Part shown: positions 5,110-61,028 of the stretch, piece after piece
How the letters are laid out: every line of letters starts with the position of its first letter
Position numbering within the stretch: position 1 is the stretch's first letter
IMG/VR virus record: IMGVR_UViG_3300045988_061744
Span: 107,235-171,234 of that record
Origin: a virus
Strand: one strand, 5' to 3'
Length of the DNA: 64,000 nt
Position numbers and translations under genes: made by a program
Notes under the pieces: model-generated
What the model was told of the DNA's origin: nothing
What the model saw: only the letters and a program-made list of their open reading frames with translations
Database searches by the model: none

Positions 5110-5575
5110 CTACAACATATTTTAAAATTTCGTAACTTTCTTCTAAGCCTGCTCTATCATCTAATAGGATGTTGTAATAAGGCTTGTAAGATTTAGGTAA
5201 TACAGAGCTTTGATTTATTTGTAGCTCTCCATCCGGAGCTAATCCAAGCATATCATATACTATGGTAGACTTTCTATGTGATTCACTAATATCTTCATCA
5301 CAAGTAAATAATACCAGTTCAAATCCTAGTCTAGCACATCTTTTTAGCAGCTCAATAACACAACTATAGTCTCCTCCATCATTATGGTAGTCAAAAATAG
5401 TGTTGTCATAATCGAAAGCGACTATTAGCTTTCCGTATTTTTTATACTCTTCTAATAGTCGCTTCTTGCAAGCTTCTTTTCCGAACGGATGGTTAAAATT
5501 TTCCATAAAGCCCTTCGTTAATCCGCTGTCTGATTTCTTTGAGAGTGTGTTCCTTCTTAAGAACACCGTCTTCAA
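5087..5575 (-). CDS. HAD-family phosphatase-like protein
   Basis: DxDxT motif (VAFDYDNTIFD) near the N-terminus. Confidence 0.45.
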   Translation of the reverse strand: MKTVFLRRNTLSKKSDSGLTKGFMENFNHPFGKEACKKRLLEEYKKYGKLIVAFDYDNTIFDYHNDGGDYSCVIELLKRCARLGFELVLFTCDEDISESHRKSTIVYDMLGLAPDGELQINQSSVLPKSYKPYYNILLDDRAGLEESYEILKYVVDEIIKLN

Positions 5576-6707
5576 ATACAGTTTCTAGACAACCTCCATC
5601 CTCTACTTCAGGAGTTACTTGGTCTTCAGCATAGTAGACACCATTGACATCCTGATATACTGCAATCAGACCTTTCAAAGAGTTCTTAGTTCCATCATCA
5701 GTCTTAGGATGTTTGAATATTTCTTTCAATTCTCCATTAATTACACAAGCAGTAGCCTTAATTGCAAATCCTAAGCTATCTCTACTTGCATACTGATATG
5801 AAAATGAACCTACTCCTAGAACAAGATTGCAAGCTGCCATATGAGCGTTCTCAAGTCGCATATAGATTTGTTTCTGACGTTCTAGTGTAATAGAATCGCC
5901 ATATAACAAGCCTATTTTTGTACTAGGATAACGATAATCCCTAGAAGTAGTATTCCATCCAAAAATCTTACCAAGCATATAATAAGCACCATAGTATTGA
6001 CCTTCTGAAACTTCTACATACTCAGCATCATCGTTAAATGGAGCATAGCAACAATAATATTTACCCTCTTTCATCCTAGTATGGAAATGAGGATTAGTTC
6101 TCAGCCCACAAATAATATCAACGGGGTCTCCGCTATCTGGACGAATAACTACACGTCCATCACGAGCCATAATATCCTTCTTTAATTTGGGAAGGAAGTT
6201 TTCAATAACATTCCAGAAGTCCCAAGTATCAGAAACTATAGAAACGAACCCAGATGGATACAATTCATTAATTAATCGCTTAAAGGTTTGAAGTTCGTCC
6301 TCTTCTCCACCAGCACACATTACAGAATGTTCTGTAGCTGGAACAGTAGCAGCAATTAATTCATTGTCAGAATTTGCACCATAATATTCTTCTAGAGCAG
6401 CAATAGCTGGAATGGTCTCACTTCCAACAAACGAAGTCATATGTGCCATACCAGAAATGATAGCAGCCTCTAAACCAGCCATTCCTCTCATAGAGAAGTC
6501 ATGACACAAGAAATCCAGATTTACATCTTCTGGAAATCCAGTATGTACTGCGTGTCTTTTAAGTTCCTTCTTATAGAGTCTTGCTCTAGTAGCAGAAGTG
6601 CAAGGCATCCACAGAGTACAACTAATTAAAGTCTCTAAATAATTAGTTAACCAGAAGAACTCTGACTTTGTATTAGTAATAGTCATCACAGGAACCCTAA
6701 TAGGCAT
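5493..6707 (-). pseudogene. nadV: nicotinamide phosphoribosyltransferase (NAMPT/NadV)-like, C-terminal 404-aa portion in a different frame from its N-terminal part
   Basis: Strong NAMPT-like sequence (FFWLTNYLETL..., ...VSIVSDTWDFWN..., RPDSGDP). Its N-terminal ~120 aa are encoded by ORF 6686..7054 in another frame. Confidence 0.6.
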
Positions 6708-7054
6708 ATTGAACCTTCTGGCAACGCTTTAATGCGAATGGGAAGATAACCCAAATCATATAGAGCTTCAATATGTCTGTATCCTACAGACTCAATTCCC
6801 ACGAAATTATGGACTCTTCGATAAAACATTTCTATAGCCTTTTCTTTAGGTAATCCAAAGAAATTCTGATTAAATTCATCAATCAGATACTTCTTAATTA
6901 AATATTGGATTCCGAATACTACAGAACCTTCAGTGGCTTCTGGAAAGTATTTGTTACTTCTAGGAGTCCAATTACTGTAAACTTGTTCAGTACCTTCTGG
7001 ATACATTCTGTGGTGGCCCAATTTATAGCCATCTGTTGCATTAATTATTTCCAT
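6686..7054 (-). pseudogene. nadV: NAMPT-like N-terminal fragment (frameshifted relative to 5493..6707)
   Basis: MEIINATDGYKLGHHRMYPEGTEQVY...IKALPEGS matches the NAMPT N-terminus. A single-nucleotide frame change near 6690-6707 separates it from the rest of the enzyme. Confidence 0.6.
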
Positions 7055-7592: not shown

Positions 7593-7912
7593 ATCTTCTT
7601 CACTATTCTAGTTAGAAAATTATTTCCTCTTAGGTTGAACTTATGTGTATATCCAGACAACCTATCTGGATTCCATACAGCGTGAACTATATAGAATAAA
7701 TATCCTACTGTATATAGCATAATGTTCAGTACTGGGATAAATCCTAGAATTAGTATTACTAAAACTAGCCACACTGGAACTTTAAGGTCATAGTCTTCTT
7801 CTATAAGTGCCACACTTCTGCTATACCCATTGTAGTAAACAGTTACATGGGTATCTTTCAAGATAAGCACCGTGATGATTACCATCACAGTGCATATTAC
7901 TAGATACATCAT
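7565..7912 (-). CDS. small membrane protein
   Basis: Three hydrophobic segments. Confidence 0.4.
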   Translation of the reverse strand: MMYLVICTVMVIITVLILKDTHVTVYYNGYSRSVALIEEDYDLKVPVWLVLVILILGFIPVLNIMLYTVGYLFYIVHAVWNPDRLSGYTHKFNLRGNNFLTRIVKKIWKFLNVCV

Positions 7913-8736
7913 TTGTTATTAGCTACGTCTTTAAATAAGGTGGGAACCTGACCATAAGTAGGAAGTTTTCCATCCCACTTCTTAATCATGTCCTGTTGAA
8001 CTATGAGAACTGACAAAGATGCTGAAATCTTTCTATTATATTCAGCTTCTGCATCACCCTTAATCTTAAGAGCTTCTGCTTCTCCTTGTGCGGCTGCTAC
8101 TTTCTTTTTAGCTTCTGCCTCAATAGTCTTAACTTCATTCTCTGCCTTCAAAGCCTGTTGAATTGCAGCATTCTTAGCATCAATAGAATTGACTAGCGTC
8201 TGTGGATATTGAAGACCAGAAGTCATTTGTTCAAGCTGAAAATTCTCAGCCAAGAGTTCCTTTGACAGTCTATCTTCTATAGACTTCTCAAACTCCTCAC
8301 GTTTACTTACTAGTTCATCAGTAGTATAGTTATTCAGCTGAATACGAAAAGCATTCTTTACGTAGTTATACAAAGTAGTGTTAATTACCTCTACAATATC
8401 TTCCTTTCTATACTTCTTAAATACTTCTGGTGATTTCCCGTCAACAATCTTCAAAGAAATTGTAGGGTCTACAGTAAACGAGGATCCGTCTTTAGCATTA
8501 ATACTGAAAGGAGGATAGTCCACAGTCTGTACGAATGTAGGATATTCATATACAGCCGTAGTAACAGGATTATACCACACCGCGCCAGTAACAAGAGACA
8601 CATCATCTACTCCCTTACCGTCTCCGTATAGATTCACCTTAATGCCTTCGTAACCAGCATCAATTCTCTCGTAGCCACAACTAGACAAGCCAAACACCAA
8701 AGTTAATACACACAAAAGCTTAATAATTGTCTTCAT
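7909..8736 (-). CDS. SPFH/band-7 (stomatin/prohibitin-like) lipoprotein
   Basis: Lipoprotein signal peptide (LVFGLSSC), then an SPFH-like domain and an Ala/Glu/Lys coiled coil. Confidence 0.6.
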   Translation of the reverse strand: MKTIIKLLCVLTLVFGLSSCGYERIDAGYEGIKVNLYGDGKGVDDVSLVTGAVWYNPVTTAVYEYPTFVQTVDYPPFSINAKDGSSFTVDPTISLKIVDGKSPEVFKKYRKEDIVEVINTTLYNYVKNAFRIQLNNYTTDELVSKREEFEKSIEDRLSKELLAENFQLEQMTSGLQYPQTLVNSIDAKNAAIQQALKAENEVKTIEAEAKKKVAAAQGEAEALKIKGDAEAEYNRKISASLSVLIVQQDMIKKWDGKLPTYGQVPTLFKDVANNK

Positions 8737-9173: not shown

Positions 9174-10190
9174 TCATTGTTCGGAAATTATTACGATACG
9201 ATTAAATTCATTATCTCCAAATTCAGTGGTAATTCCACATCCCTTAATAACCAATTTATCCTCTGGAGCACCATAGCTAATCAGAGCCTTCTTCATAGAT
9301 TCTGCCCTAGCTACAGCAAGGTTATTATTAAACTCTTCTGGACCTTCTTCCGAAGCATATCCCTCAATCACATAAGTTTTTCCACTATTAGAAATATAGG
9401 AAGCTAGTTCTGAGACAGCCACATTGGAAGTTTTAGAAATCTCTGAAGAATTTTGAAGGAATTGAATTTTTGGAGTCAAAAGCTCTACTTTAGTAATTTC
9501 GATTGTGTCCGTCTTAACAATTTCTATTGGTTTACGAGCCATAAGTTCCTCATTCTTGGCTCTCAACTCATTAATAGAAGCGTTTAGGCTTTCAACCTCG
9601 GCATCACTATACAACTTCATAATTGGAAAGTCCCCCTTGCTAGACTTAAAGCGATAGGTAGCACCAATATAGACGTTAAACTCATGATTCAGAGGAGAAG
9701 TCTTGGGAAGTAACATATACTCAGGAGTAACATTTAATGCCCATCTATTAGAGATATTAAAGTTACATCTAACGGCTCCACGGGCGGATACATTATTATA
9801 GACATCTCCATAAGTATGATACCAACCAGCACCAACGATTAGTATAGGCTCAAACAGACGCCTATCTCCGTTATATCCACATATCAGGTTAGTAAGATTG
9901 GTAGTAACGTTAGCTGTCAAATTATGTGAATCAAAGAATGTTTTATTTCCTTGGTTCATTCCAGCCATCATGTCTAACTCCAAGCCAAAGATAGGAGTAA
10001 TCTCCTTACCAATAGCAATGTTTACTAGTACATCATTTGGTTCTGCCCAACTTCTATGGTTATCCCAAATAGTAGTTCCAACATTACCAGAAATATACCA
10101 GTTATCCTTCATACTTCCAGTCTCAACAACTTGTGCGCTAGCAAATGCACACATCAAACACAAACAAATAATACTAAAAATTCTCTTCAT
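9174..10190 (-). CDS. OmpA-family outer-membrane protein
   Basis: Signal peptide, beta-rich N-terminal half, and an OmpA C-terminal peptidoglycan-binding-like domain (NLAVARAESMKKALISYG...). Confidence 0.65.
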   Translation of the reverse strand: MKRIFSIICLCLMCAFASAQVVETGSMKDNWYISGNVGTTIWDNHRSWAEPNDVLVNIAIGKEITPIFGLELDMMAGMNQGNKTFFDSHNLTANVTTNLTNLICGYNGDRRLFEPILIVGAGWYHTYGDVYNNVSARGAVRCNFNISNRWALNVTPEYMLLPKTSPLNHEFNVYIGATYRFKSSKGDFPIMKLYSDAEVESLNASINELRAKNEELMARKPIEIVKTDTIEITKVELLTPKIQFLQNSSEISKTSNVAVSELASYISNSGKTYVIEGYASEEGPEEFNNNLAVARAESMKKALISYGAPEDKLVIKGCGITTEFGDNEFNRIVIISEQ

Positions 10191-10318
10191 AATTAAATTA
10201 GTTAAATTATAGACTATAATATCTAAATAATTTGTTCTTTCGACTTAGTGTAGTCAATGTGTATGATGTTGACATTGTTCTAGAGGCAATATTCGTTTAC
10301 CAAAATATCTCGCTCTTT

Positions 10319-10915
10319 CTAATGTTCAAAATCAAATTTAATAAGATTACCATGTTTAAAGAAAGGTATTTCCTTAAAATGTTGTATGCCGTCATACTCT
10401 ATAAAAGTGTCACCAATCTTAAAGTCAATAAATGCAAATCTTCCATTTTTAAGAGGTATTCTAACTTGCTTCTGATATTCAATCCCATTATCTTCTAACC
10501 ATGATTGTATAAATAATTCTCCTAAAGATTTGGGTTTGCACATAGGGCATCCGGATTGTCGAAGAAAATCTCCCGGTCTAATCACAAAATCCCCATGGAT
10601 AGGACATCCTATTATAACTTTAGAATCATTATTAATATAAATTGTCTTAGAATAATCGAAATTTTTATCAGGAAAGGTTTCCTAGGCTTTCTAAATGAAC
10701 TTTTCCGTATTCCAGGCTTTGTTAGTCCCGCTTTTTATAGAATTAGCCCATATACCTTTCAAGAGATTGCTAGCAACTACCTCCACTTCTCCAAGTATCT
10801 TGGATATAACTATTACTGACTACCTACTGCCTCTATAAATACTCTTACTAAAATCGCAATCCGGATAAAGAGTCTATACCCTTCTTAAAAATTCTTCCTA
10901 AGTTAATTTCTTCAT
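10319..10915 (-). CDS. endonuclease-like protein (Zn-ribbon GCPxC plus a DUF559/PD-(D/E)XK-like C-terminus); amber-recoded (6 in-frame TAG)
   Basis: With TAG read as Gln, ORF 10319..10585 extends upstream to an ATG at 10913-10915, giving MKKLTQEEFLRRVQTLYPDCDFSKSIYRGS...GCPIHGDFVIRPGDFLRQSGCPMCKPKSLGE...IEYDGIQHF. The ORF track shows only the part after the last TAG. Confidence 0.55.
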
Positions 10916-20404: not shown

Positions 20405-20956
20405 TTACTCCAGACTAATTAAACCCTTCTCTAACATAATATGGTGATTCGGACATAACCATACTAAATTATTCTCATTGTTAATCTCTTTAATAAGAGT
20501 GCCTTCGTCAAATTCTAATATTCCTTTAAGATGATGTACTTCAAGTATTGCATCAAATTCATGATTATGACAATATTGACATACTTTCTCACGTTCGGAA
20601 CTTTCTAATACTCTACGAGCATTAGTCCTTATTTCTTGACATTTAGATGATAAGTACTTCTGCCCAGATGTATAATAACCTAATGTTTTGTTACCAATTC
20701 CATTAAGTTCTTCCCAGCAACTACGACACATTTCTGAATCTTTATGCTTAGGTTTACCACATCTAGGACATATCTTGTTTTCATCGTGCTTTATCCTACC
20801 TCTATTATTGTAAGAAGCAGCACACGAATGACTACAAAACTGTTTCTTCCTCACATCTGCGACCCTCTGATTATCTAGTACTTCGATTACCTTACCACAT
20901 TCCTTACAGTGGTTAGGATTCTCATAATACAATTTAAGAGATTGTTCTCGATTCAC
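20405..20956 (-). mobile_element. HNH homing endonuclease with N-terminal Cys-rich zinc-ribbons
   Basis: C-terminal HNH motif EVHHLKGI...NLVWLCPNHH; lies directly beside a tRNA cluster. Confidence 0.6.
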
Positions 20957-21107
20957 AGATAAGTTTAATTAATTTTAATGACAGTGTGATATGCAAGCCA
21001 TTACACCACAGCCTCGATATTTAATCCCAGTACCATATTTCTCTGAGGATTTTTACTTGTTGTTTGATTTGTTCAGAAATTTTCTACATATTATTTACAG
21101 TGTTAGT

Positions 21108-21178
21108 TGGGAAGGGCAGAGTTGAACTGCCGTCTAGAAATTATCAGTTTCTTGTTCTAACCGTTAAACTACATCCCA
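21108..21178 (-). tRNA. tRNA-Ile(GAT)
   Basis: Anticodon arm AGAAA-CTGATAA-TTTCT; T arm GGCAGTTCAACTCTGCC. Confidence 0.55.
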
Positions 21179-21204
21179 ATCGGTTGAGCTATAGCCCTGT
21201 CATG

Positions 21205-21757
21205 TGGACCTAACGGGAGTCGAACCCGTGTCCAAACAACCCTTATTACAAGGATAACGTGCGTCTCATTTTTATTACATCAGCTAGTGAGTTCTAGCAT
21301 TTAGATAGTTTTACTAGATTTACTCTAAACTACACTATCGAGTTTTAGAAACTGGTTTACAAACCACCAAACTGGGCTGACCGAAGTCAACTCTCCACCA
21401 CCTACTTTTTAACGCTAAAATAGGAAAACGAGTGTTTGTGGTGAGTCAACCACGCAGGCACACATCCCTTCTGTTTAAAGACAACGGAGATTCAGTCTTA
21501 CTAACTCTTAGAGTGTTCTGATTAAAGATATACCACGGATTACCGTCCGCACGCCATTAGCGATATACCTAACCTCTTCTGTTTCTAGGTCTCTCCAGTA
21601 ACCCGACTTGATTAATAGTGTCTATTAATAAGCCAGCAGCTTAGGCTGCCATTCTTACAGGTGCAATTTCTGCAGTTATTTGTTTTTCGTCGTTTAAAGA
21701 GATTGCGCTCTACACGTCCTTATAATTTGTAATCGCCTGTCAAATCCAAGTAGGCCC
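21205..21757 (-). ncRNA. ssrA: tmRNA (ssrA)-like RNA
   Basis: The 3' end TTTGGACACGGGTTCGACTCCCGTTAGGTCCACA closely parallels the E. coli tmRNA 3' end, including the GGAC that precedes the T arm. The 5' end GGGCCTA pairs with TAGGTCC and gives a G3:U70 wobble (alanine identity). The 5' region CTTGGATTTGACAGG resembles ATTCTGGATTCGACGGG. There is a candidate tag ORF ...AACGACGAAAAACAA...GCAGCCTAA. No ORF of 60 aa or more across 20960-21870. Confidence 0.5.
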
Positions 21758-21873
21758 ATATAAATAAAATAATTACTAGGTTCGTGTCTTTTTCACTGAT
21801 TCCGTCACATTGAGACTACCAACGGTGTCCCTGGGCATTACTGTTTTCTTCAGCCAACTATGTAATTATTCTA

Positions 21874-22434
21874 TTAGAGTTTACACTGTTTAAGTATTTC
21901 TTTAGTTATTATTCCATCACTAGCAAGAGAATTTAATTTCTCTAAATCAAACTCACTAGGTTGGAATTTGAATTGAATCCAAGTTGGCTCGCTTGGTCTA
22001 TAATCTAACCAAGATTCGCAGTCATCAGTTCCAAGAACTTCTCGTACCATAGCTAAAATACGTTCTCCAGCAGCTTTAGTTTTTACGAATCCAGATAAAT
22101 CGTAACCAACACCTCTAGAACGCCAACATTCTCCTTCTTCTGGTCTAACGTCTTTAGGCTCCCAATGCCAAGGAGAAATACCTTTTCTAGGATGGCCTAT
22201 TCTTATAGCTTCTTCCTTTACCCATTCAGAGTTTGGGTCAGACGGATTCTCTGGATAAGCTCCATACAAGCACTTCATAGTAGGATTATCGCTCCTTACT
22301 TCAAAATGTATACCACAGTGCCTACAAGTACCAGAAGTTAAACCTCCTCCAGATACATAACTACCTTTAATGGCATCACAACCACAGTTGGGACAACCCC
22401 ATTTTAGGTATTCGTCATAAAGTATTGATAACAT
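21874..22434 (-). CDS. Cys-rich zinc-ribbon hypothetical protein
   Basis: CPNCGC...CRHCG motifs. Confidence 0.4.
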   Translation of the reverse strand: MLSILYDEYLKWGCPNCGCDAIKGSYVSGGGLTSGTCRHCGIHFEVRSDNPTMKCLYGAYPENPSDPNSEWVKEEAIRIGHPRKGISPWHWEPKDVRPEEGECWRSRGVGYDLSGFVKTKAAGERILAMVREVLGTDDCESWLDYRPSEPTWIQFKFQPSEFDLEKLNSLASDGIITKEILKQCKL

Positions 22435-23467: not shown

Positions 23468-23540
23468 TGGACACGCAGGGACTCGAACCCTATCTTCCGG
23501 TGTGCAAAACCAGCGCTCTAGCCATTTGAGCTAACGGCCC
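23468..23540 (-). tRNA. tRNA-Ala(TGC)-like (acceptor stem pairs imperfectly)
   Basis: D arm GCTCAAATGGCTAGAGC, anticodon arm CTGGT-TTTGCAC-ACCGG, T arm AGGGTTCGAGTCCCT. Only 4 bp of the acceptor stem pair, though G3:U70 is present. Confidence 0.4.
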
Positions 23541-24403: not shown

Positions 24404-24485
24404 TTCCGATTAAAGGATTTGAACCCCTGACCTCCCACCAATGCCTTATAGTTGTGGGTGCTCTAACCAACTGAGCTAAATCGGA
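24404..24485 (-). tRNA. tRNA-like with an expanded 15-nt anticodon loop (AACTATAAGGCATTG)
   Basis: Perfect 7-bp acceptor TCCGATT/AATCGGA, canonical D arm GCTCAGTTGGTTAGAGC and T arm, but the anticodon stem CCCAC/GTGGG encloses 15 nt. Confidence 0.35.
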
Positions 24486-24680: not shown

Positions 24681-25022
24681 TTAAGATAGTAATTCCTGTG
24701 CCTCAATCTCTCCGATTATTTTAGTAACCGCAATCTTGAACGGATTTCCCTTAGTTTTGTCAAACAGATGTACATCACGTACCTCATCAACCTTGTCAGG
24801 AACATTCACCTTTCTTTTCCCTCTCTCTATGGTCTTCCAAGTGATGACTTCGCACCGTTTCACGTCATAAACGCTATCGTTGCGGTCCACATAGACCTTG
24901 AAGAAGTTCTTCTTATGCTTCACAATCTCAACTCTTTTAAAGTTTTTGATGTTAGCATGAAATTTCAAATCGCACTTTCCATTAGGTAAGAAAATCAATT
25001 CTGCCATAATGATACTCCGCAT
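24681..25022 (-). CDS. hypothetical protein
   Basis: 113-aa ORF. Confidence 0.4.
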   Translation of the reverse strand: MRSIIMAELIFLPNGKCDLKFHANIKNFKRVEIVKHKKNFFKVYVDRNDSVYDVKRCEVITWKTIERGKRKVNVPDKVDEVRDVHLFDKTKGNPFKIAVTKIIGEIEAQELLS

Positions 25023-25143
25023 AGTCGGAGATTCAAAGTTAAACTATGTTAATTCCAGTCTTTCGTCTGGCACTCCACCTCGTTTTAACCAATAGCTACT
25101 GTTCTTCACTACTTGAGCTAAGCTCTAAACTGGGATAAAGGTA

Positions 25144-25527
25144 TTATTCTATATAAATAAATGGTTTTCCAAATTCTTGCCTGAAAGACTCAAACCAGCC
25201 TTCCATTTCCTCATCACTATCAAAATAGATAGACTCATCATGTCTCTCAGAGAACTCTAGAATAATATGCGGCTTCTGGTATACTATTCCATCCTTGTAG
25301 AAGGACGTTCTCTTACTAATCGATTCGAGCATCCCTTTCTCAGAGTAAGTCCCAAAGCATGGGTCTAGAAGATACCAATAATCAATATGCCTTTTCCAGA
25401 ATAAAAATTTGGTATCCGCTATTCTATGCTTCCATTCTGGATGTTTTCTAGTTTTAAAAACTAGTATCCTCTTTATTAAATTTCCATTAATATATTTATC
25501 CATAATTAATCCCAATATTCTGGACAA
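25144..25527 (-). CDS. hypothetical protein
   Basis: 127-aa ORF. Confidence 0.4.
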   Translation of the reverse strand: MSRILGLIMDKYINGNLIKRILVFKTRKHPEWKHRIADTKFLFWKRHIDYWYLLDPCFGTYSEKGMLESISKRTSFYKDGIVYQKPHIILEFSERHDESIYFDSDEEMEGWFESFRQEFGKPFIYIE

Positions 25528-49612: not shown

Positions 49613-49822
49613 TGAAAAAGTTTATTTTAAGCCTGGGGATTGTGTTACTTTACGGTAGTGTAAAGTAATGCATTCTCCAGTTATGCTTGTTCTAAGAAGA
49701 GAAGCAGCTTTATTTAAAGATAACCAAGGATTACGAGGACTAAGATGTAGATGGTTTACTGATTCTGGATTAATGCAGGAAGCAGTATTTAATACAAAGG
49801 ATTTAATTAAAGTAGAAGAGTA

Positions 49823-50395
49823 ATGGCTAATTAGGAAGAATTACAGAAGGCATTCATGGCATACTTGATACAAGATGCCCAAGCGCAAGGAATACAATTA
49901 CAATCAGAGCAAGATTTATAGGCTTACGCTGAATAGCTTGGAGAAGATGGAATTAAAGCCAAGTATCAGGAATTTATGTAGAAGATGCAAGGCGGAGTTA
50001 TGGCTAGACTTGGAGCTAAACTAGAATACTATAAAAAATTAAAAGGAGTATGCCCAGAAGGAGAGGAACTTGCTTATTTTAAACAGGGAGGAAGAATCTG
50101 CAAAGCTTGCCAAAAAGCATAGAAAGGAACTAAGGTTACTAAGAAAGCTAATGAAGTTGACAAGTTCAAGGCTGGAAGAGCTTAGTATAAAAAGGATATG
50201 AAATCTGCAAAGGATGAAGCATCTAGAGATTCTGTATCCATTAACAAATATAATGACTAGGAGGTCATGGCAAATAAGGGACACAAAGGAAACTTTAAAA
50301 ATGGAAAATGGGTCCCAGATAGAACAAAGTATGCTAAGAAAGATGCTTGTGGTTCTAAAATGAAAGTAAGTAAATGCGGTTCTAAAATGAAATAA
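49823..50395 (+). CDS. hypothetical Zn-ribbon protein, heavily amber-recoded (about 12 TAG)
   Basis: MANQEELQKAFMAYLIQDAQAQGIQLQSEQDLQAYAEQLGEDG...GVCPEGEELAYFKQGGRICKACQKAQKG... Confidence 0.45.
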
Positions 50396-50425
50396 AAAGA
50401 TTAAAGATGTTAATGTTAATGATTG

Positions 50426-50992
50426 ATGAGTATGAATGTATTTAATTATAACACTTTAACTAAATAGTTAGAAATAAATGAACCAGAGCTTCTTCTAGTT
50501 AAAGAGTTTAAGGCTTTGATACAGAGAGATAAATCTGTTGACAAGGAACGAGTAACTAGAGAATTATCTTACATTTATCTAGCTATTGATTGGAAGAGTC
50601 CCTATAGCCAATATTCAGAACATGAAAGACATGATGAAGCTATTAGTGACTCTGGACTATCTGAATCCGAATTTAATGACCCATTATTCAGGGAAGCCTG
50701 TAGAAAATACCGAGCATTGTAGGATTCTAACAAATCAATAAAACTTCTAGAAGCAGCTAAAAGAGCGGCTGACTAGTTTATTGATTATTTTGATACTATA
50801 GTAGATTTAAATGAACGTGATAATAATGGCAAACCCGTCTTTCAAGCTGAAAAGGTAATGAAAGAAATGGCTACTCTTCATAAAGTTCATGAAGAATTAG
50901 TAACACTAGAAGAGCAGGTTAAGAAAGAGCTTACAGAGCAATCTACTGTAAGAGGTGGAGCTACAGACGGCTTTGACCCAGGAGACTTTTAA
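50426..50992 (+). CDS. terminase small subunit-like protein (positional), amber-recoded
   Basis: 188-aa ORF once TAG is read as Gln, immediately upstream of and abutting terminase large subunit. Confidence 0.35.
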
Positions 50993-50994
50993 TT

Positions 50995-53355
50995 ATGCCT
51001 AGAAAGAAAAAAATATTACCTGAAGAAATCTAGAATATAGTAGATTAGGTAAGAGAGAAAGAACAAAAAGAGGATGCCAAAGAAGCTAGAGAACTAGTAT
51101 AGAAGATAAGAGAGGAAAGGGGCAAAAATGCTGATTATTGGGATGTAAAGAGAGGAGATAAGATAGAGGTATTTGACCCTACTTTATCTTATGAAATAAC
51201 TGGATATAGACCAATAGATGAAACACACGGTCTTGACTTCGACCCAGATTGGTTTACTGAGACCAGAGAAGTGTATAGAAAAACTGGGAAGTATTGTCCA
51301 TATCTAAAAGATAGTAAGAGATATAATGAGTTTTGGAAGGAATAGTATAGAAGATGTAAATATGGAATGACTGTTAATGGTTATACAATTACTGGAGATA
51401 ACTATTTCTTCCTAAACTTCTATTAGCTTCCTATCATTGATGATAACAAGGCATCTGGAGAAGGAACAAGTAGTGACTTTCCTATATTTTTCGCATCTCA
51501 TTATATGTTCTTTCATTATCTGTAGATGGCTAGAGTTCTGCATAAGCACGCAGCTCTTATGAAAGCCCGTTCTATTGGATTCTCTGAAATAAATGCATCC
51601 TTATCTGCAAGAATGTATTCAGTAATCAGAAGAAGCAGAGTAATGATTACTTGTTTTAATGATACCTTCCTTAAAGGTACTTTTAGTAAGTTTGATAATG
51701 CTTTAACATTCTTGAATACTTGTACAGGAGGAGGATTCTTCAAACTACGTTTGATTGACCAAGACTTAAGAAAGAAGTCTGGTAAACAGATTAAGGTAAA
51801 CGGACAGTTTGAGGATGTTGGATTTAAATCAGAAGTAGTTGGAATAAACGGAGCTAAGGCATCTAATATTCGTGGAGACCGTGTTGACCTATTAATATAT
51901 GATGAAGCAGGGTCTTGGCCCGGACTAGATACTGCTGTAGTGCAGGGACAAGAGCTTTGTGAAGTTCAGGGTAAACCTCGTGGAACAATGTTATTTGGGG
52001 GTACTGGTGGTGATATGGGTGCTCCATTAGCAGGTCTTAAGAAGATATATTACAATCCAAAAGCTTACAAAGTTCTTCCATTTAGACATAATTATACACA
52101 GGATGGGACTACTATTGAAAGTGGGTTCTTCATTCCATATTTTGTCTAGTCTCTAAATTCAGAATACATGGACCATAGAGGTGTATGTAATACAGTAGAA
52201 TATAAGAAGTATCTATAGGAAGAGCGCGATAATTTATTAGCAGTTCCAGATGATTATCTAAAGAAGTGTGCCGAACGATGTTGGAATGCAGAAGAAGCAT
52301 TTAATCTTGAAGGTGTTAACAAATTCAACAAGATTCTTATTGCGGACCAGTTAGCTAATATAAGACTTAAGAAAATAGGACCAAGACCAGAATCTGGATA
52401 CATAGACTACTTCTATAAAAACAATAAACACACCTAGGATAATATAGATGGTTTTAAATGGATTCCTAATATTAACGGAAAAGTAAAAATACTTGAACAT
52501 CCTGTATGGTCTGATTTGTATAAAGAGTAGATGGATAAACTTAGATAGGAAGCTGAAGAAAGGGGAGAAGAATTTGAATCTCCAGCGTACAAAGAAATGC
52601 ATGATTTATATGTTGCAGGAATAGACGGTATTGATATAGGAGCTAGTCAAACTTCGAAAGAAACAAGAGATCCTTCTGATTTCTGTATAACTATAAAAAG
52701 AAGAGCATTTGGTCTAAACGAACCGTAGTATGTTGCTATGTATAAAGACAGACCTAATGACATTAGAGAAGCCTATAAAATAGCTATGTGTTTAGCTAGA
52801 TACTATAATTGTAGAATAAACATAGAAGCTACCCGTGTAGGTATGATTACCTGGGCTAGAGAAAAGGGTTGTTTAAACTACTTTATGAAAAGACCTAGAG
52901 CTACTCTAACAGACGTTAAGAATGGAACTACTAAATAGTACGGAACACCCGCTACCAAAACTATTATAGAACAACATACTGACTTGACAGCAGCCTTTAT
53001 TGAGGATTTCTGTCATACTATATGGTTTGAAGAAATGTTAGACCAATTTACTGGATATAATGATGAGAATAAAGGTAAATTCGATATTGTAGCCGCTGTG
53101 GGAATGACAGAATTGGCAGACTAGGAATTGTCAGGAAGATAGCCAGTGCTTGTTGAAAAAGAAGTTGAACAATTCCAAGATTATGGTTATTATTACGACG
53201 AGAGAGGAATCAAAAGATTTGGGGTTATACCAACTTCTAAGACTTTTGAAACTAACATACAAAAAAATGAATACGATGACCCATACAGAATTGAAACAAG
53301 TGATCCTAGGTTATATGAGAGACTTGTACAAAATGGAATACGTAGGTGGGCTTGA
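50995..53355 (+). CDS. terL: terminase large subunit, amber-recoded (more than 10 TAG)
   Basis: Continuous 786-aa ORF only with TAG read as Gln. N-terminal ATPase region ...GMTVNGYTITGDNYFFLNFYQLPII...FPIFFASHYMFFHYLQ...; ...VDLLIYDEAGSW... (Walker B-like); nuclease domain YVAGIDGIDIGASQ...DPSDFCITIK...IVAAVGMTELADQ. Ends at TGA. Confidence 0.75.
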
Positions 53356-53611
53356 AATTCAGAACCTAGATCCAGTTGGTTATAAGGTATCGTTTAACTT
53401 TGATAGGTCAGAGATGCCTTTAGTCATTATAGCTGATTTACCTGATGAAGAATTTCTCCCATTTATAAAGGAAGAATTAAGAAGTAGGAAGTTACAAAGA
53501 GTTAAATACTATAATGCAACTAAACTTCCTCCAGAACAGCATAATTTATGTTATGAAAGAAAAAGAACTGATAGACAAGACGAACGAGGCTATTGCGGAG
53601 CTTGTATATGA
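53333..53611 (+). CDS. hypothetical protein overlapping the terminase large subunit 3' end
   Basis: 92-aa ORF in another frame with Cys cluster C...CGAC. Confidence 0.25.
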   Translation: MEYVGGLEIQNLDPVGYKVSFNFDRSEMPLVIIADLPDEEFLPFIKEELRSRKLQRVKYYNATKLPPEQHNLCYERKRTDRQDERGYCGACI

Positions 53612-55724
53612 TAAGTACGAATTATAGAAAGCCTATAATTACTATAACGGAAAAAGAGACCCAGAATAGTTTCGTTACCTGGAAGAAAACTTCGGAATAG
53701 GTAGTCCTACTTCTGTAGAATTTACACCACTACTAAAGAAGCACGTAGATGCTCTAGTAGGGGAATATCTAGGAACCCCTATCCTTCCGAAGATTTCTTG
53801 TAAGGATTCAGATACCATTAGTAATATCACTAGAGAAAAATAGTTAGAAATAACTAAAGGGATAGTTAAATTTCTTAGAGACCATTTAAGTAATTCTATT
53901 CTGAAATTTATCGACGGAAAAGATATTACAGATAAAGCCGTGAAGACTTAGTTAGATAAAATTATTCAAGACATTGATTAGTCTTTTATTTCTCAATATG
54001 AGATAGCTGCATAGAATATTATTCATTATATCATGCAGTCTAGAGAAACCGATTTAATAACTAAACTCCGATAGTTACTTACAGATTTATTAATTACTGG
54101 CTATACATTTTTCAGAGTAAAATCATCATCTTCTGGAACTAACATAGAAATAGAAGTTCTGAATCCTTTAAATACTTTCGTAGATAGGAATCCAGAATCT
54201 CCATATGTTAGAAATTCGTATAGAGTTGTGGTTAGAAAATGGATGAGTAAAAGCTAGATATTAGCTAAATACGGAAAAGAAATCTCTAGAGAAGATTTGA
54301 AAAGACTAAAAGATGAATGGAGAGCTGATGATTCAGCTGCAGTTTATAGAAGAGTTTATGGTGACACTTGTACTATAGTAAACGAAGATTAGAATCATGA
54401 AACTATTCCTGGATATCCAGATAATGAATATAGTGCTCATAGATTTTAGTTAATTCCTGTTTATGATGTAGAGTGGATAGAAACTGATGACGATTTTGTA
54501 ATGTAGAGATACAATACCATTAGAATTGGAGAAGAAATATATATTCTGAGAGGTCTAGACAAGACTGTTATGAGGTCGAAAGATAATCCTAATTTCTGCT
54601 CTTTGTCTGTGAATGGGGTATATTTCTTAAATCGTTCCCAACAACCGTACTCTCTGATATTAAAGTGCGCACATCTATAGGATAGATATGACTTGTTAAA
54701 TTATTATAGGGATAACCTGATAGCTAACAGCGGTACTGCTGGAGTAATCATGGATATGTCATTGCTTCCTACTAACCTAGGCGTAAAATGGCCAGAAAGA
54801 GTGTAGAAATGGTTAGCATACAAGAAGGGTGGTATCATGTGGATTGATTCCACTTAGGAGGGAAGAAATGATGGAGCGCAAGCACCTAACTAGATATACA
54901 ATGGATTTGATGATACCTTAAAAGCTTAGGCTGTATAGGCTATTGAATTAGCAATTCAATCAGTAGAACAAACTACATCATCTATAACTGGAGTATTTAG
55001 AGAAAGATTAAATGGAATAGAAACTCACGATGCTGTAACTAATATTAAGCAAGGTGTTACTAACTCTTACATAGTAACCAAGCATTATTTCTAGTAGATG
55101 GACCTAATCACTTGTGAGATATTATTGGATAGTCTAAACTAGGCTAAAATAACATATAAGAAAGGATTGACTGGTACTATTATACTTGGAGATAAATACT
55201 AGCAGATATTTACAGCGCTTCCAGAGTATTTTACGGTTACTGATTATGACATCCATATAACTTCTAGCTCTGAAGTAATGGAAGATTTACAAACTATTAA
55301 AGCTATTATTCCAGAGTTTGTTAAAAGTCAGCAAATGGATCCTGACATCATATTTGAAGCACTAACTGCTAAGAGTCTTACAGACCTTAAATACAAGGTT
55401 AAGAAAGCAGTATAGATTCGTAAAGAAGAAAACAATTAGCTATAGTAGCTATAGGAAAAATTGGAAGAAACTTCACAATAGGCATAGCAGTTACAGCAAG
55501 AACTATAGAAAGCTTAGTAGAAGATAGAAAGTTTGGATGAGTAGAGATTAGGATTAGAATAGCAGAAAATGTAGTTAGAATATAAGGTTAACTGGCTCAA
55601 AGCTCAATCTGATTCTACATATAAAGATAGACAAATGGATATAGAAGAAAAGAGAACTGAAATAGAGTTGGCTTAGCTTCATGATGGAAATCCATATAAT
55701 GACAAAATAAGACAAATACATTAA
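53514..55724 (+). CDS. portal protein, amber-recoded (more than 25 TAG)
   Basis: With TAG read as Gln a continuous ORF of about 735 aa: ...ELVYDKYELQKAYNYYNGKRDPEQFRYLEENFGIGSPTSVEF... with a Gln-rich C-terminal coiled coil LQQLQEKLEETSQQAQQLQQELQKAQQKIESLDEQ. Start could instead be the ATG at 53553. Confidence 0.6.
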
Positions 55725-55725
55725 T

Positions 55726-56460
55726 ATGGCAACTGGAACAATTGTATATAATAAGGATTAGCAATAGATTTATCCTATTTCAGATGGTTCAGTAATTATT
55801 AGTAATGCTTCTGGTTCTAAATCAAATGTGGAAGAAGATTTAAAGAAACTATTTAAATAGGTGTCAGACCTTTCTGGTTCTAGTGAGGCGGTAAATAATA
55901 TTATTATTAAGATTCATTACTTACCTGCTGATACTGCTGAAGAATCTGAGATAAAATTATCTACTAAATAGTGGACTGATACTTTTGAACTTCCAACTGA
56001 AGAGAATCCATACATCTGGAAAAGAACTAAATTTACTTTCTAGGGAGCTGACGAATCTCAGGGAACTACTATTTATGAGATTGTGGCAAGCGATGTTTCT
56101 ACTATTATCTAGAATATATACACTAGAACTGAGGGAATAACTCCAGTTATTGAGTATAAGCAGAAAACAGATGAGGATGGAAATCCTCTATATGTAGATT
56201 CAGAAGGACATGAAACAACGACTGTTACTCCAACTAAGGCATATGACTATAATTATTATTGGAATGGGAAACCAGCTGGTAAATTAAATAGTCTACCACC
56301 GACTCCTGAAGGTTAGTCATATACATGGACAGACTATCCTCAAGATATTAGTTTATCATTTAGTTCAGTTTTTATGTCTAGACGTATACGACAAGAAGGT
56401 AAGTGGAAACCATTTTCTACTCCTGCTCAATATGGTCAATGGCCTACTACTGAGTCTTAA
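55726..56460 (+). CDS. virion-associated hypothetical protein, amber-recoded
   Basis: MATGTIVYNKDQQQIYPISDGSVIISNASGSKSNVEED... Confidence 0.45.
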
Positions 56461-56470
56461 TTATTATAAT

Positions 56471-57199
56471 ATGGAATTTAGTATTGATATACATACCCAG
56501 ATTAACGGGGAAATAACTATTGAAGACTTTTCAAAGGAATATGGATAGTATATTGATGAAGATTTAGAGGTAGTAACTTCCTATGATTCTTATAAGTATA
56601 GTGAAAGTGCTACCCTAAATACTATCATAAAAGTTAGTATAGGAGATGCTACTTTGATAGACGTACTTCTCAATGACCATACAGAGGATTTAGACTCTTG
56701 TACATTTAAGGTGAAAGAAGATGGATATTATGTAGTAGACCACATAATTCTTCCTAATATGAAATGGTATGAAAATTCATCTGATGAATACAAGGAGTAT
56801 TATGAAACTATCTATATAACTGATGGAGAGAAACTATATAAAGAAGTAGATGGAGAGCTAGAGGAATGTACTGTAAAAGAAATCCTTGAGAGAAATATAG
56901 AAGGAACTACTATCAAAAAATGTAAGGTAGATGTATTCTTTACAGGAAATCTGCAATAGTGTTATATTAACTACTGTAAGAAACTCTTTGACTCTTTATT
57001 AAATAAGTGTCTAACTAGAGAACATGATGCAGATATATTTGCAAGAGATTTTATCTGGATGACACTTAATATTATAGATTATTTAATAGGCTTTAAACAA
57101 TTCATGGAAGCTGAAAGATTGTTAGCAATGTTCCGCACTTGCGGTGGATTCTGTGACAATCACCATGAACATAAACGTATAGGTTGTGGATGCTCTTAA
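56471..57199 (+). CDS. hypothetical protein, amber-recoded
   Basis: Track ORF 56654..56959 extends in both directions when TAG is read as Gln. Confidence 0.4.
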
Positions 57200-57354
57200 A
57201 AGAAAGGCTATTAAAAGGTATGAGGATTTCCTTAAAAGGGTTAGAAAGGGATATAGACCAGATTATTAGGATATTTTGAATCTAATTTGTTTTATTAACC
57301 TACCCGTAAAATTAGATAATCACGAATTTATTAAATAGCAATTATTGAATCATA

Positions 57355-58944
57355 ATGATACAGCCTATTTATACTTCGGTAAGCAATGCTGATATAAAGC
57401 CTTGTGGAAAGAAAGGACATTTAATAAAAAGTGAACCTATACCTCTCCTAAGAAACAACTATCTTGGAGAATATAGAACTGAATTAGAAAGAGCTAAGGT
57501 TAGAAAGAATCTAGGTATCGCTGATGAGTAGAGTCTTCTTTGGGGAAATATAGAAGGAACTATAGAAGCCTAGAAAGATTTAGTATAGTACATAGAATAG
57601 AAATGGACTTATACTAGTGATGTTGCAGAGAATATCAATACTGTAAAAGATGCCTTAGATTATGCTTTATTCTTTATAAGTTAGTACAAAGCTAATACAG
57701 AAGAAATAGAGGAAATAAAAGTTGATATAAGTAATATCAGAACTTCTATTACTGTACTTAAGGAAGAACTTGAAGAAGAAATTGAATCTAACAGAACTGG
57801 CATAAACAATCTTTCTGAGAAAATAACCTAGATTAATGAGGCAATAGAGGATATTAATGAGTCTATCAAAAATATAGATGTTGACAAAAACATCTAGAAT
57901 TGGATAACTAATAGTCTAAGAAACTCCAAAACCATAGAAATAAAGGATGATAATACTCTAGAAGTAATTCTATCTTAGTAGGAGGATAATGCAATACATC
58001 TGATTCAGTAGGAAATTCCTCCAGTAGAGGAGGAAGGAGAACCTTCCACAGTAGTTCTACCTGGAATATATGTAAAAGACCTGGAACCATCTCTAACAGA
58101 GGTAAAGGAAGAAGTTAAGGGAGTATAGGAAGCTTAGAAGAACACTGATTCTAAAGTAGATTCTAATACTGAGAATATCACAAATATATAGACAAGTTTA
58201 GAAACTATAGCTACTTATCAAACTGAACTTCCAGATGATACTACTTCTACTGTTATTCAAGGAACTACAGTTGAAAAATTGAAAGGAAAGCCGTTTAATG
58301 AGATTATAGACACTCTATTATTTCCTACTGTTGTTAGAGATTTGGTTTATCCTTAGTTGTATTATAGCTTCACCTCTTAGATTGTGGAGGTAGGATCCGC
58401 TTTACTTACCCCTACTTTAACATTTATAAAAAATGATGCTGGAGAGGAAACTGGTAGAGAAGAAACTATTACCTATAATGATTCTCCTGTAGAATCTGAA
58501 ACATATGATTCTATCGGTGTTTATGTGCATTCTGGTACCGTAAATTATGCTGCTGGAGAATATCTTATTAACAACAAGGGAGAGGTTACAGACAAGAGGG
58601 TGGAGGCTGGTTCAATATCAACTACAGCATAGGTGACTGCTACCTACCCTTGGTATTCTGGTAATACAGATAGTTTAATCAAATAGAGTCTTGTTCCATT
58701 TGGACAATCTTCTGGAATTATTACATTTTCATTAAGTGGAAAGGCTATTATAAAATTACCTGGAAGTAATACTTAGCTAAATTCATTTACAGTAGATGGA
58801 GGACTAGGATACCTAAATGTTGATTTAAGTGGCTGGGAAACTTCTACTGAATAGATAAATGGATTTCCTTATAAAGTATGGACTAAGAAGGATACTTATT
58901 CTTCAGCATTGCCTCATCAAATTAACTTTACTTTATCACAATAA
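57355..58944 (+). CDS. structural/fibre-like protein with coiled coil, amber-recoded (about 20 TAG)
   Basis: About 529 aa with TAG read as Gln; includes track ORF 58384..58632. Confidence 0.45.
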
Positions 58945-60812
58945 TGGCATTTAAATATACAGGTGATGCTACATTAGGCGTTGCTTTAACCGTAGAAACT
59001 CCTAAACCTCTTGATAATAGAACAGTAGTCGATAATTTAGACGAATTATATTCTATTCCGGAGAAATATGCTTATCAAGGCATGACCGTTTCAAATATAG
59101 ATAACGGAAATATTTATATGCTAGTAGATAAGTCTAAGATTAAATACAAAGAAGGTTGGAAAGCTTCTTATGAATCTATTTAGATAATCACCTGTACAGA
59201 GGCTGAATATAAGGAATGGTCTGAAAATACCACAGAAGATTTTAAACCTATAGACGAAAATAAAACATATCTTCATGCAGAAACATATTATTATATATAT
59301 GAAGACAGCCTAGATGATGATTAGTTTTATTTATCAGCAGAATGGGGTAAAAAGATAGAGGAATAGTTGAAATAGAAAGCTCTAAATACTACTGTCGTAC
59401 AGATTAGAACGGATTTAGACTAGACAATCTCTAACCTTTCCAAGTATGCTACTCTTGAAGAGTTAACTGAGAATTATGCCCCTAAAACTGATCTAGATTT
59501 AGAGGACCCAGAATCCTTGTTATCTAAAGCCTTATCTAACCATTATACTAAGGAAGAAACTGATGACATATTTGTTACCAAAGAAAGTCTTAGAGGAGAA
59601 GGAATGGAAGGAGATGATTTTGTCTTTGTTACAAAGAAATAGTATGACGAAGACCAATAGGCTATTCAAGATGAGCTAGATAAGACTTTAAAGGTAGATG
59701 GAGATGGTTCCCTAGAAAGTATTACTGTAGGATAGATAAAGTCTCCAGTAGTAGAAGGGAAGGATTAGCTAGTAGTAGATGTTAAATCTGATGGATTGTT
59801 TGTTGGAGAAGACCAATTCGCCATGATGTCAGATGTTCCTAATCTGGTTACATTAACTGAAGAGGAATATTTAAAACTGGTAGAAGATGAGGCTATAGAA
59901 CCTGACACATATTACTATGTGTATGATGTAACAAATGATGCTAAAGTCTATATTACTAAGGAGTACTTAGATCAAAATTACCATACTACACATCAGTATT
60001 AGTCCTGGGTTGCTACTAATTATTACTCAAAGACATAGATTGATGAAATTGTTTCTGGTTTATAGAAACTAGGAAGCTACGTTACTACAGAAGATATTAA
60101 AGCATACTACACTAGCTCGTAGGTAGATGAAAAGTTTCTTACAAAAGAAAATGCTCAATCTACATACGCCACTCAATAGTCATTAACCGACCTTTCCGAT
60201 TAGATAGCAGAGGAGTATGTGACAAAAGAAAGTTTAAGAGGAGATTCTCCCGAAACTGGTGATGACGATTTTATATTTGTTACCTAGAAGAAATATTAGG
60301 AAGATTAGGATGCCGCTTCTAAGGAATTTAGCACAGAGCTTCTAAAATCAACCTCTATAGAAACTTCTGATATTACTATTTAGAAAATTGTCGAAAAAGA
60401 AGTACAATAGGGAACAACTGGAGAAAGTTCAGAAGATGAAACAACTGAACAGACTATTGAAAGTTCTGTTAAACTTACTACAGAAGACAATAGATTATTA
60501 GCATCTGGAAAGCAAGTTGCTCTTACAGAAGAGGTTCCTAAATTGGTATGTCTTCCACAAACAGATTATGATGACTTAGTTGAAAATAATAAGACAGAGA
60601 ACGATACGTACTATTGTACTTATGGAGAAAAAGATATATAGGATACAGGATATGTCAGAAGTGAATATCTGACAGAACGCTACTATACAAAAGCTGAGGT
60701 GGAAGAATTAATAAAGGCTGCTGTAGACGAATTGTAGAAGAAAATAGATGCAATATAGCCTGGTTCTGGTAACGTACAGGTAGATGGAGAAAATGAACAA
60801 TTAATATTTTAA
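58944..60812 (+). CDS. tail fibre-like protein with internal tandem module repeat, amber-recoded
   Basis: About 622 aa; the repeated module VTKESLRGEGMEGDDFVFVTKKQYDEDQ / VTKESLRGDSPETGDDDFIFVTQKKYQEDQ. Confidence 0.45.
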
Positions 60813-60817
60813 ATAGT

Positions 60818-61027
60818 ATGGGAACAATTTGGGTTGAAGGGTAGTTTAAGAACTCAGCAAAACCAGTAAAAGTTGTTGGAGGAAATATAGGAGGATCTGG
60901 AATAGACCCAGATACATTAAAGAACTACGCTACCAAGGCTGAACTGTAGAAAGCTGTTGAAGACTTAACTGCCTCCATAGAAGGAATAGATCATAATGTA
61001 GAAGAAGAAACTTTAATAATACAATAA
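60818..61027 (+). CDS. small protein, amber-recoded
   Basis: MGTIWVEGQFKNSAKPVKVVGGNIGGSGIDPDTLKNYATKAELQKAVEDL... Confidence 0.3.
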
Positions 61028-61028
61028 T

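Follow-up and report, generated by a model that had tools for sequence, protein, structure and literature searches.

Does a viral tRNA gene array that contains a long stretch without open reading frames (ORFs) also carry a working transfer-messenger RNA (tmRNA)? The question arises from a 64,000-nt stretch of DNA (hereafter the window; positions 107,235 to 171,234 of the IMG/VR virus record IMGVR_UViG_3300045988_061744), for which an initial annotation had proposed a tmRNA-like gene of about 550 nt among the tRNA genes. In bacteria, tmRNA frees stalled ribosomes and tags their incomplete products for degradation; tmRNAs of phages, though known, are rare. We consider it very probable that positions 21205-21757 on the minus strand are a complete, one-piece tmRNA gene of functional type, belonging to a TAG-recoding crAss-like phage of the human gut with a genome of about 190 kb.

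Identity of the candidate gene and its relatives

The gene spans 553 nt from G1 to the discriminator A (21205-21757, minus strand; window coordinate = 21758 − RNA position p), as indicated by its match to the Rfam family RF00023, by 63 unique homologues and by pairing statistics. The RF00023 covariance model aligns end to end (model positions 1-374) with 21202-21757 on the minus strand at 74.2 bits against a gathering score of 47 (E = 6e-27), and 12 divergent homologues of varying length score 56-99 bits on the same model, all above threshold. The initial annotation had envisaged that the region might instead lack a tmRNA-model match or fold as a group I intron or another RNA family; a permissive Rfam scan of 21000-22000 with E up to 10 returned no competing RNA family, no intron and no ribozyme, and a wcaG match inside the gene (21337-21432) is sub-threshold (24 bits vs 42). 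Permuted two-piece tmRNA models (RF04321 and relatives), which the annotation had also suggested running, matched just as sub-threshold fragments of 22.1 and 16.8 bits vs 47; the ends of the RNA stand in standard order and the permuted form was rejected.

The features described in the annotation are all found where it had placed them. Its ORF-free region of some 900 bp corresponds to 20957-21873 and contains the tmRNA gene and a tRNA-Ile(GAU) gene alone, the latter (21106-21178, minus strand) lying 26 nt downstream on the same strand and called by both ARAGORN and Rfam. All 12 related loci examined likewise have the tmRNA among tRNAs, and with a tRNA array on its own strand the RNA is probably matured like tRNAs.

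Relatives were collected by scanning IMG/VR with three independent exact motifs, namely a 3′ 29-mer, an internal 19-mer and a block at RNA 446-468. Homologues are present in more than 110 viral contigs, mostly of 95-190 kb, and comprise 63 full-length unique sequences of 497-601 nt and five further variants. One contig (L083, 7390-7955, plus strand) has a homologue whose 3′ acceptor strand is missing from immediately beyond the T stem, the sequence leading into a terminator-like hairpin instead. An intron-split copy was considered for it and rejected: no acceptor strand lies within 2 kb, so this is probably a truncated or recombined copy.

ARAGORN, another check that the annotation had proposed, did not report the tmRNA gene in the window. 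The program calls three of the 63 copies, all of 515 nt, and gives them a wrong, implausible tag from the variable region. A length limit was rejected as the cause, since copies of 497 and 513 nt are also missed and deleting up to 46 nt gave no rescue; a 452-nt deletion mutant was called, again with a wrong tag. A literature search found no tmRNA report for crAss-like phages or Crassvirales, the papers containing both terms merely using ARAGORN, and the words tmRNA and SmpB are absent from the Zeta crAss-like papers PMC7886860 and PMC12386605. The crAss-like tmRNA family thus seems to be unreported, because the usual detection program misses it.

Architecture of the RNA

To assess the fold, 25 diverse homologues were aligned (alignment A2), and pairings specified by hand were compared with versions in which the 3′ partners were slid and with 500 shuffles. 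The standard pairs are formed in 92.3% of cells, compared with 38.7-49.5% when the partners are slid by 1-3 columns; 38 pairs are changed on both sides, a number that falls to 7-14 after sliding, and none of the 500 shuffles reached the observed pairing values. Together with the E-value, this puts the match far outside chance expectation.

The tRNA-like domain is assembled from both ends of the gene (all features of the RNA given below are on the minus strand). The 5′ acceptor strand GGGCCUA (RNA 1-7; 21751-21757) faces UAGGUCC (RNA 546-552), which follows the T arm (RNA 529-545) and precedes the discriminator A (RNA 553, at 21205) in the segment 21205-21229. The resulting pairs are G1-C, G2-C, G3.U, C4-G, C5-G, U6-A and A7-U, and bear out the G3:U70 wobble, the alanine identity pair, that had been proposed from the GGGCCTA strand. 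The stem is paired at all seven positions in 62 of the 63 homologues, occurs in the compensatory versions GGGCCUA/UAGGUCC, GGGCCUG/CAGGUCC, GGGCUUG/CAAGUCC and GGGGAUG/CAUCUCC, and has three of its seven pairs changed on both sides in A2. G3:U70 together with the discriminator A is kept in 62/62 intact unique homologues (and G3:U70 in 25/25 of A2), with variation in the neighbouring pairs.

The T stem is paired in 100% of A2 cells with four of five pairs changed on both sides, and six compensatory versions of it occur among the 63 homologues. The T arm and its preceding GGAC (GGACACGGGUUCGACUCCCGU), whose likeness to the tmRNA 3′ terminus had been pointed out from the sequence, agree almost base for base with the Rfam consensus. 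Similarly, the proposed D-loop analogue (CUUGGAUUUGA; RNA 8-18, 21740-21750) aligns with the consensus cuGGaUUCGAC at high posterior probability, and G11 and U14-A18 are invariant in A2. The terminal CCA is not encoded: the bases after the discriminator are CAU here and CAU, CUA, CAA, CUU or GGA across homologues, so a CCA-adding enzyme is required. None of the tRNA genes in the window has an encoded CCA, and a related Zeta phage encodes a CCA-adding enzyme (PMC12386605).

Helix 2 connects this domain to the body, its 5′ strand (RNA 19-46; 21712-21739) pairing with RNA 496-525 (21233-21262) as 19-27:517-525, 33-41:504-512 and 42-46:496-500. Seven of nine pairs in the first segment and five of nine in the second are changed on both sides, twelve in all, with 98-100% of cells paired, and in the homologue L294 the pair G43:C499 has become A:U. 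At the position of the first pseudoknot (PK1) stands the hairpin AGAG-CGCAAU-CUCU (RNA 47-60; 21698-21711), whose stem 47-50:57-60 is invariant in 25/25 sequences and has a 6-bp version, AGAGUU/AACUCU, in other clades. The putative second stem of PK1 is a 3-bp pairing of the loop with downstream sequence (GUA/UAC vs GCA/UGC) with one covariation, and Rfam marks its pairs as non-canonical.

The tag reading frame is GCA GAA AUU GCA CCU GUA AGA AUG GCA GCC UAA (RNA 85-117; 21641-21673), encoding AEIAPVRMAA and a stop. In the Rfam alignment the resume codon is the GCA at RNA 85-87 (21671-21673), the consensus position, following AAUAACU, and the context AAUAAnU-GCN agrees with the consensus. The initial annotation had read an internal frame running from AAC GAC GAA AAA to GCA GCC TAA; this frame is intact in the window and the ending, two alanines and a stop, stands, whereas the start at AAC GAC GAA does not. 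A tag beginning at AAC GAC GAA AAA CAA AUA ACU is ruled out by 98%-identical relatives with 1-nt deletions there: because of such indels in close relatives, the frame upstream of GCA(85) is not conserved.

From the resume codon onward the variation is of a coding type. Family tags include AEIAPVRMAA, ATYSEVRMAA, AAYSEVRMAA, AEIDYNRMAA, ATTSVRMAA, AERSD(V/Y)RMAA, AERSEYRMAA, ANYSEVRMAA, ANTSVRMAA and ANNSVRLAA, and a clade resuming on GGC has GNTEVRMAA, GNTRVKMAA and GNTVYRMVA. The last alanine codon is GCC, GCG or GCU, the stop UAA or UGA; R/K and M/L are exchanged, lengths change in whole codons, and frame-breaking 1-nt indels are confined to the sequence preceding the resume codon. Within the tag, the N-terminal half is free to vary and the last four residues are held as (R/K)(M/L)(A/V)A, with a basic residue universal at position −4.

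Part of this constancy has a structural source. Helix 5 (GGCAGC-CUAA-GCUGCU; RNA 108-123, 21635-21650) holds the tag stop codon in its loop, is paired in 96.5% of A2 cells and has two of six pairs changed on both sides. Since the codons AUG GCA GC form its 5′ strand, RNA structure adds to the conservation of the tag C-terminus; in L090 the helix is kept as GGUAGC/GCUACU at the cost of an alanine-to-valine change in the tag. The basic codon (AGA/AAR) lies outside helix 5, and the residue at −4 is not explained by the helix. The hairpin that follows (RNA 124-153; 21605-21634) has six of 11 pairs changed on both sides in A2, and its A129:U147 pair is G:C in 10 of 22 sequences.

The excess length of the family resides in an enlarged central domain (RNA 154-459; 21299-21604), which stands where the pseudoknots PK2-PK4 are usual and in which 269 nt, at the expected place of PK2 and PK3, are not aligned to RF00023. 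The number and form of pseudoknots vary among tmRNAs. According to the conservation profile, conserved islands alternate here with variable hairpins, and RNAalifold run clade by clade partly resolved the fold. One island is a purine-rich element, GACCUAGAAACAGAAGAGGU (RNA 167-186; 21572-21591), which is invariant in 22 homologues fetched via the 3′ end and shows single substitutions alone in variants fetched via an unrelated motif; it may fold into a hairpin, ACCU/AGGU, whose purine loop has 11 nt. A long-range helix, UGGAGA/UCUCCG (RNA 161-166:268-273, within 21485-21597), encloses this element and a variable hairpin, V1. It reads GGAAGG/CCUUCC in L302, which amounts to two double changes, and GGAGAA/UUCUCC with a matched A/U insertion in the clades of L003 and L048; its column count is just 72.7% because these indels are misaligned. 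An alternative pairing of UCUCC with the downstream GGUGGAGA was discarded, its partner being absent from some clades.

The last sub-domain (21304-21368) is closed by GGUGG (RNA 390-394) with CUAUC (RNA 450-454), the second pair being GU in 27, GC in 19 and AU in 15 of the 63 sequences, with 96% of cells paired. It is followed by the conserved hairpin GCUAG-AACUCA-CUAGC (RNA 460-475; 21283-21298), with two pairs changed on both sides and 91% of cells paired. A closing helix GGGUU:AGCCC (154-158 with 380-384) is tentative and overlaps another hairpin, and the noise in all-against-all helix scans of the variable region was too high to settle the fold. A hairpin module of about 36 nt (GGAAGCGUCAGCUUCUGAACCUUUAAGUUUGG), found directly before the conserved AGUUUGGUAG, is single in L055, L072, L090, L097 and L102 and occurs twice in tandem in L061 (13202-13797, minus strand), which indicates that the tmRNA body grows through module duplication.

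Relation to cellular tmRNA and competing explanations

For comparison we used 34 Bacteroidota tmRNA loci; the 14-mer genome scan that supplied them gave many chance matches, and loci confirmed by ARAGORN were kept. Phage and cellular RNAs are alike in being one-piece with G3:U70 and a discriminator A, but the 34 cellular copies measure 371-400 nt (the Rfam consensus has 374 positions) against 497-601 nt in the phage family. The likeness is closest at the ends: the phage sequence L093 and tmRNA of a Bacteroidaceae metagenome-assembled genome (MAG) are near-identical at the 5′ end (GGGGnUG..UGGUUUUGACAGCG) and at the 3′ end (GUUUGGACGAGGGUUCGACUCCCUCCAnCUCCA). Bacteroidaceae MAG copies (L174, L176; 394 nt) have the tag GNNNFALAA, and the phage clade resuming on GGC has G-N... 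tags as these do. Between helix 5 and helix 2, by contrast, the phage body is not alignable to Bacteroidaceae cellular tmRNA; the conserved element CCUAGAAACAGAAGAGG and the long-range helix are absent from the cellular RNAs compared, and the second stem of PK1, unlike in Bacteroidota cellular tmRNA, is weak or absent.

The tags differ as well. All 34 cellular tags end in Y-A/Q-(L/F/M)-A-A, with Y-A/Q at −5/−4, whereas the whole phage family has its basic residue at −4. This difference would suit a working tmRNA that out-competes that of the host and, through another tag, shifts the protease or adaptor and hence the fate of rescued proteins. A freely varying N-terminal half joined to four held residues also fits such tag-swapping, but the overlap of helix 5 with AUG GCA GC, as seen in the alanine-to-valine change of L090, forces part of the C-terminal conservation. 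Some cellular Bacteroidota tags end in YAMAA, so an MAA C-terminus occurs naturally. On balance, we regard tag-swapping as unlikely to be what the gene is kept for.

The tRNA-like ends of tmRNA are the parts that contact alanyl-tRNA synthetase (AlaRS), SmpB and EF-Tu. SmpB was not found by phmmer in 1.04 Mb of phage sequence (the 64-kb window and, in relatives, flanks of about 7 kb on each side of the gene), nor in Pfam scans of the 30 largest TAG-free ORFs of the window. The phmmer query was a single verified E. coli SmpB, the sequence search for queries having returned enterobacterial SmpB only; a positive control with 60% of its residues randomised was detected at E = 4e-23. Preserved ends and the lack of SmpB in the sequence examined fit a gene that was captured from a host and has remained dependent on host partners, and the tmRNA probably relies on host SmpB and AlaRS and on a CCA-adding enzyme.

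The same two observations would also suit a decoy that soaks up host SmpB, AlaRS or EF-Tu and does no tagging, as proposed for the remnant of mycobacteriophage DS6A that consists of a tRNA-like domain (TLD) only; TLD-only molecules inhibit tmRNA, in the account that PMC4131195 gives with reference to Mao et al. 2009. Such a decoy has no need of a conserved frame, yet the tag shows synonymous changes, stop switches, whole-codon length changes and a hairpin with the stop in its loop, and the resume-codon context fits the consensus. This conserved coding behaviour argues against a pure decoy, which we think very unlikely.

The size of the body raises a further alternative, in which the extra 150-200 nt are a group I intron or another structured RNA inserted into an ordinary tmRNA. 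The lineage is reportedly rich in self-splicing introns, Zeta crAss-like phages being intron-dense (PMC7886860), and the 269-nt block that Rfam leaves unaligned, with the sub-threshold wcaG similarity inside the gene, could be taken in that sense. Against it, no intron or ribozyme family matched at any E up to 10, the surplus length is distributed among a number of variable hairpins that alternate with conserved islands instead of forming one block, the compensatory changes of the long-range helix tie the region into the fold, and all 63 homologues are long, with no short intron-less allele; an insertion is highly improbable. Finally, although ssrA is a common prophage integration site and many tmRNA calls on viral contigs are host fragments, the chance that a captured ssrA, an attachment-site fragment at a prophage end or an assembly chimera is involved seems negligible for a complete gene that lies between phage ORFs and phage tRNAs on one strand, has counterparts in over 110 independent contigs (about 95-190 kb), and has a body unlike any Bacteroidota tmRNA compared and 100-200 nt longer than the 34 cellular copies.

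Genetic code, proposed role and significance

The phage reads TAG as sense in part of its genome. Genes of the plus-strand block from about 49.8 kb (49800-63000) have 7-35 in-frame TAG codons each, among them those for the large terminase (50995-53352; 15) and the portal (53514-55721; 35). In-frame TAG is missing from most of the minus-strand genes near the tRNA array; within this otherwise TAG-free early block, the minus-strand ORFs 10202-10912, 24681-25289 and 40439-41626 have 5-9 such codons. Two tRNA(CUA) suppressor genes lie at 43081-43151 (minus strand) and 45551-45623 (plus strand). The terminase shares 26-29% identity with crAss-like phage terminases, and related genomes measure about 185-192 kb; the Zeta crAss-like group has genomes of 145-192 kb, TAG or TGA reassigned and many tRNAs (PMC7886860, PMC12386605), and we infer that the phage fits this group.

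Several other elements accompany the tRNA and suppressor genes. A full-length RAGATH-14 RNA (43181-43374, minus strand; 181 bits vs 149) lies about 30 nt upstream of the tRNA(CUA) gene at 43081-43151 on the same strand, an adjacency that may be meaningful; we know of no function for RAGATH-14. A Pistol self-cleaving ribozyme (41691-41759, minus strand; 63 bits vs 34.5) is found between ORFs near the boundary of the early and late blocks. RAGATH-34 RNAs (72-121 bits vs 60.7) lie 1-2 kb from the tmRNA in the relatives L054 (3252-3359), L055 (6732-6831), L048 (6283-6387) and L090 (4815-4912), and none was reported in the window. Two minus-strand tRNA-like genes, 23468-23540 (39.5 bits) and 24404-24485 (53.1 bits), are recognised by the Rfam tRNA model and not by ARAGORN, and are possibly atypical tRNAs; the window as a whole yielded no tRNA-Ala call. 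Just downstream of the tRNA-Ile and tmRNA genes, in the tRNA array, an HNH endonuclease ORF with zinc-ribbon motifs (20405-20956, minus strand) is likely a homing endonuclease. Minus-strand auxiliary genes (5493-7051, 9174-10187, 7909-8733 and 31011-32981) account for a NAMPT_N and NAPRTase pair (nicotinamide adenine dinucleotide salvage), an OmpA-like outer-membrane beta-barrel protein and two SPFH/Band_7 proteins, the OmpA/beta-barrel protein indicating a Gram-negative host. A scan for sigma-70 promoters and terminators gave counts at chance level, the sigma-70 model being unsuited to a Bacteroidota host.

As to function, the predicted determinants of a working tmRNA are all present except a clear second stem of PK1 and canonical PK2-PK4. 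By analogy with tmRNA biology, the RNA would be cut out of the tRNA-array transcript, receive its CCA from a CCA-adding enzyme and be charged with alanine by host AlaRS; it would then enter stalled ribosomes in an SmpB-dependent manner, add the ...RMAA tag and release the ribosome. Why the phage keeps such a gene is a matter on which we can offer a tentative proposal, to us the most economical one: read-through of UAG stops by tRNA(CUA) might raise the load of non-stop complexes, and additional rescue capacity would free ribosomes for late genes. A link between the tmRNA and TAG recoding is a plausible hypothesis. The initial annotation had pictured stalls at unsuppressed UAG early in infection. 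We give this less credence than a role in rescuing non-stop complexes: unsuppressed UAG terminates translation as long as host release factor 1 (RF1) is active, and the early-stall version would need RF1 to be disabled. Stalls are instead expected after suppressor-driven read-through of UAG, or with RF1 inactivated; as background, tmRNA in recoded E. coli acts at unassigned UAG and on messages ending in UAG (PMC6207430).

Going further, we speculate, with considerable doubt, that the oversized tmRNA specifically serves a way of life based on stop-codon recoding. Once tRNA(CUA) is on, ribosomes would pass the UAG stops of host and early genes and reach mRNA 3′ ends; the phage tmRNA would clear these non-stop complexes and add a phage-specific degron with its basic −4 residue, so that ribosomes would be recycled for late genes and the destruction of host proteins speeded. 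Through its extra domain with the purine-rich element, the phage RNA could attract a factor of the phage or of the ribosome (S1, for instance) and so take precedence over the host tmRNA.

Several points weigh against a working tmRNA tied to recoding. A canonical second stem of PK1 is not evident and PK2-PK4 could not be mapped, so that the predicted standard architecture is confirmed in part. The case for a working molecule rests on sequence and covariation, and the SmpB search covered the window and, in relatives, flanks of about 7 kb within genomes of about 190 kb. The link to recoding is a co-occurrence within a single lineage and has no statistical weight; the tag stop, always UAA or UGA and never UAG, proves nothing in this respect, as cellular tmRNAs are typically the same. 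Moreover, a sister clade of 14 contigs with 74% terminase identity was not recovered by the three tmRNA motifs. These contigs measure about 106-225 kb, most of them 160-190 kb (e.g., IMGVR_UViG_3300045988_080621 and _075357), and the clade may lack the gene or have a more divergent version.

Earlier work describes tmRNA genes of cluster C mycobacteriophages and of Bacillus phage G (PMC4131195) and, together with SmpB, of huge phages (PMC7162821). As here, cluster C mycobacteriophages (Bxz1, Catera) and phage G are large lytic phages with a complete tmRNA and a big tRNA set (PMC4131195, PMC1475703); judged by their descriptions, they differ in infecting other host phyla, in having no reported stop recoding and in having genes found by standard tools. 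Huge phages above 200 kb (Al-Shayeb et al. 2020, PMC7162821) resemble the present case in placing tmRNA within a wider translation gene set, and differ in having SmpB alongside it and ARAGORN calls, whereas here an oversized RNA belongs to a crAss-like genome of about 190 kb, with no SmpB found in the sequence examined. What is new is therefore a tmRNA with an atypically enlarged body in a crAss-like lineage, phage tmRNA as such being already known.

The most abundant viruses of the human gut include the crAss-like phages, whose large TAG/TGA-recoding branch has been studied mainly for suppressor tRNAs. For phage annotation, the finding exposes a gap, as pipelines based on ARAGORN miss the family or give it a wrong tag, and the ...VRMAA tag is a searchable handle in gut metaproteomes. 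For tmRNA structure, it provides a natural case in which the body attached to a host-like tRNA domain is larger by a third. With the tmRNA present in more than 110 contigs, ribosome rescue joins the translation functions of the lineage. It becomes possible to test whether code switching by suppressor tRNAs carries a ribosome-stalling cost that the phage must offset, and the sister clade from which no tmRNA was recovered is a useful contrast for the recoding link.

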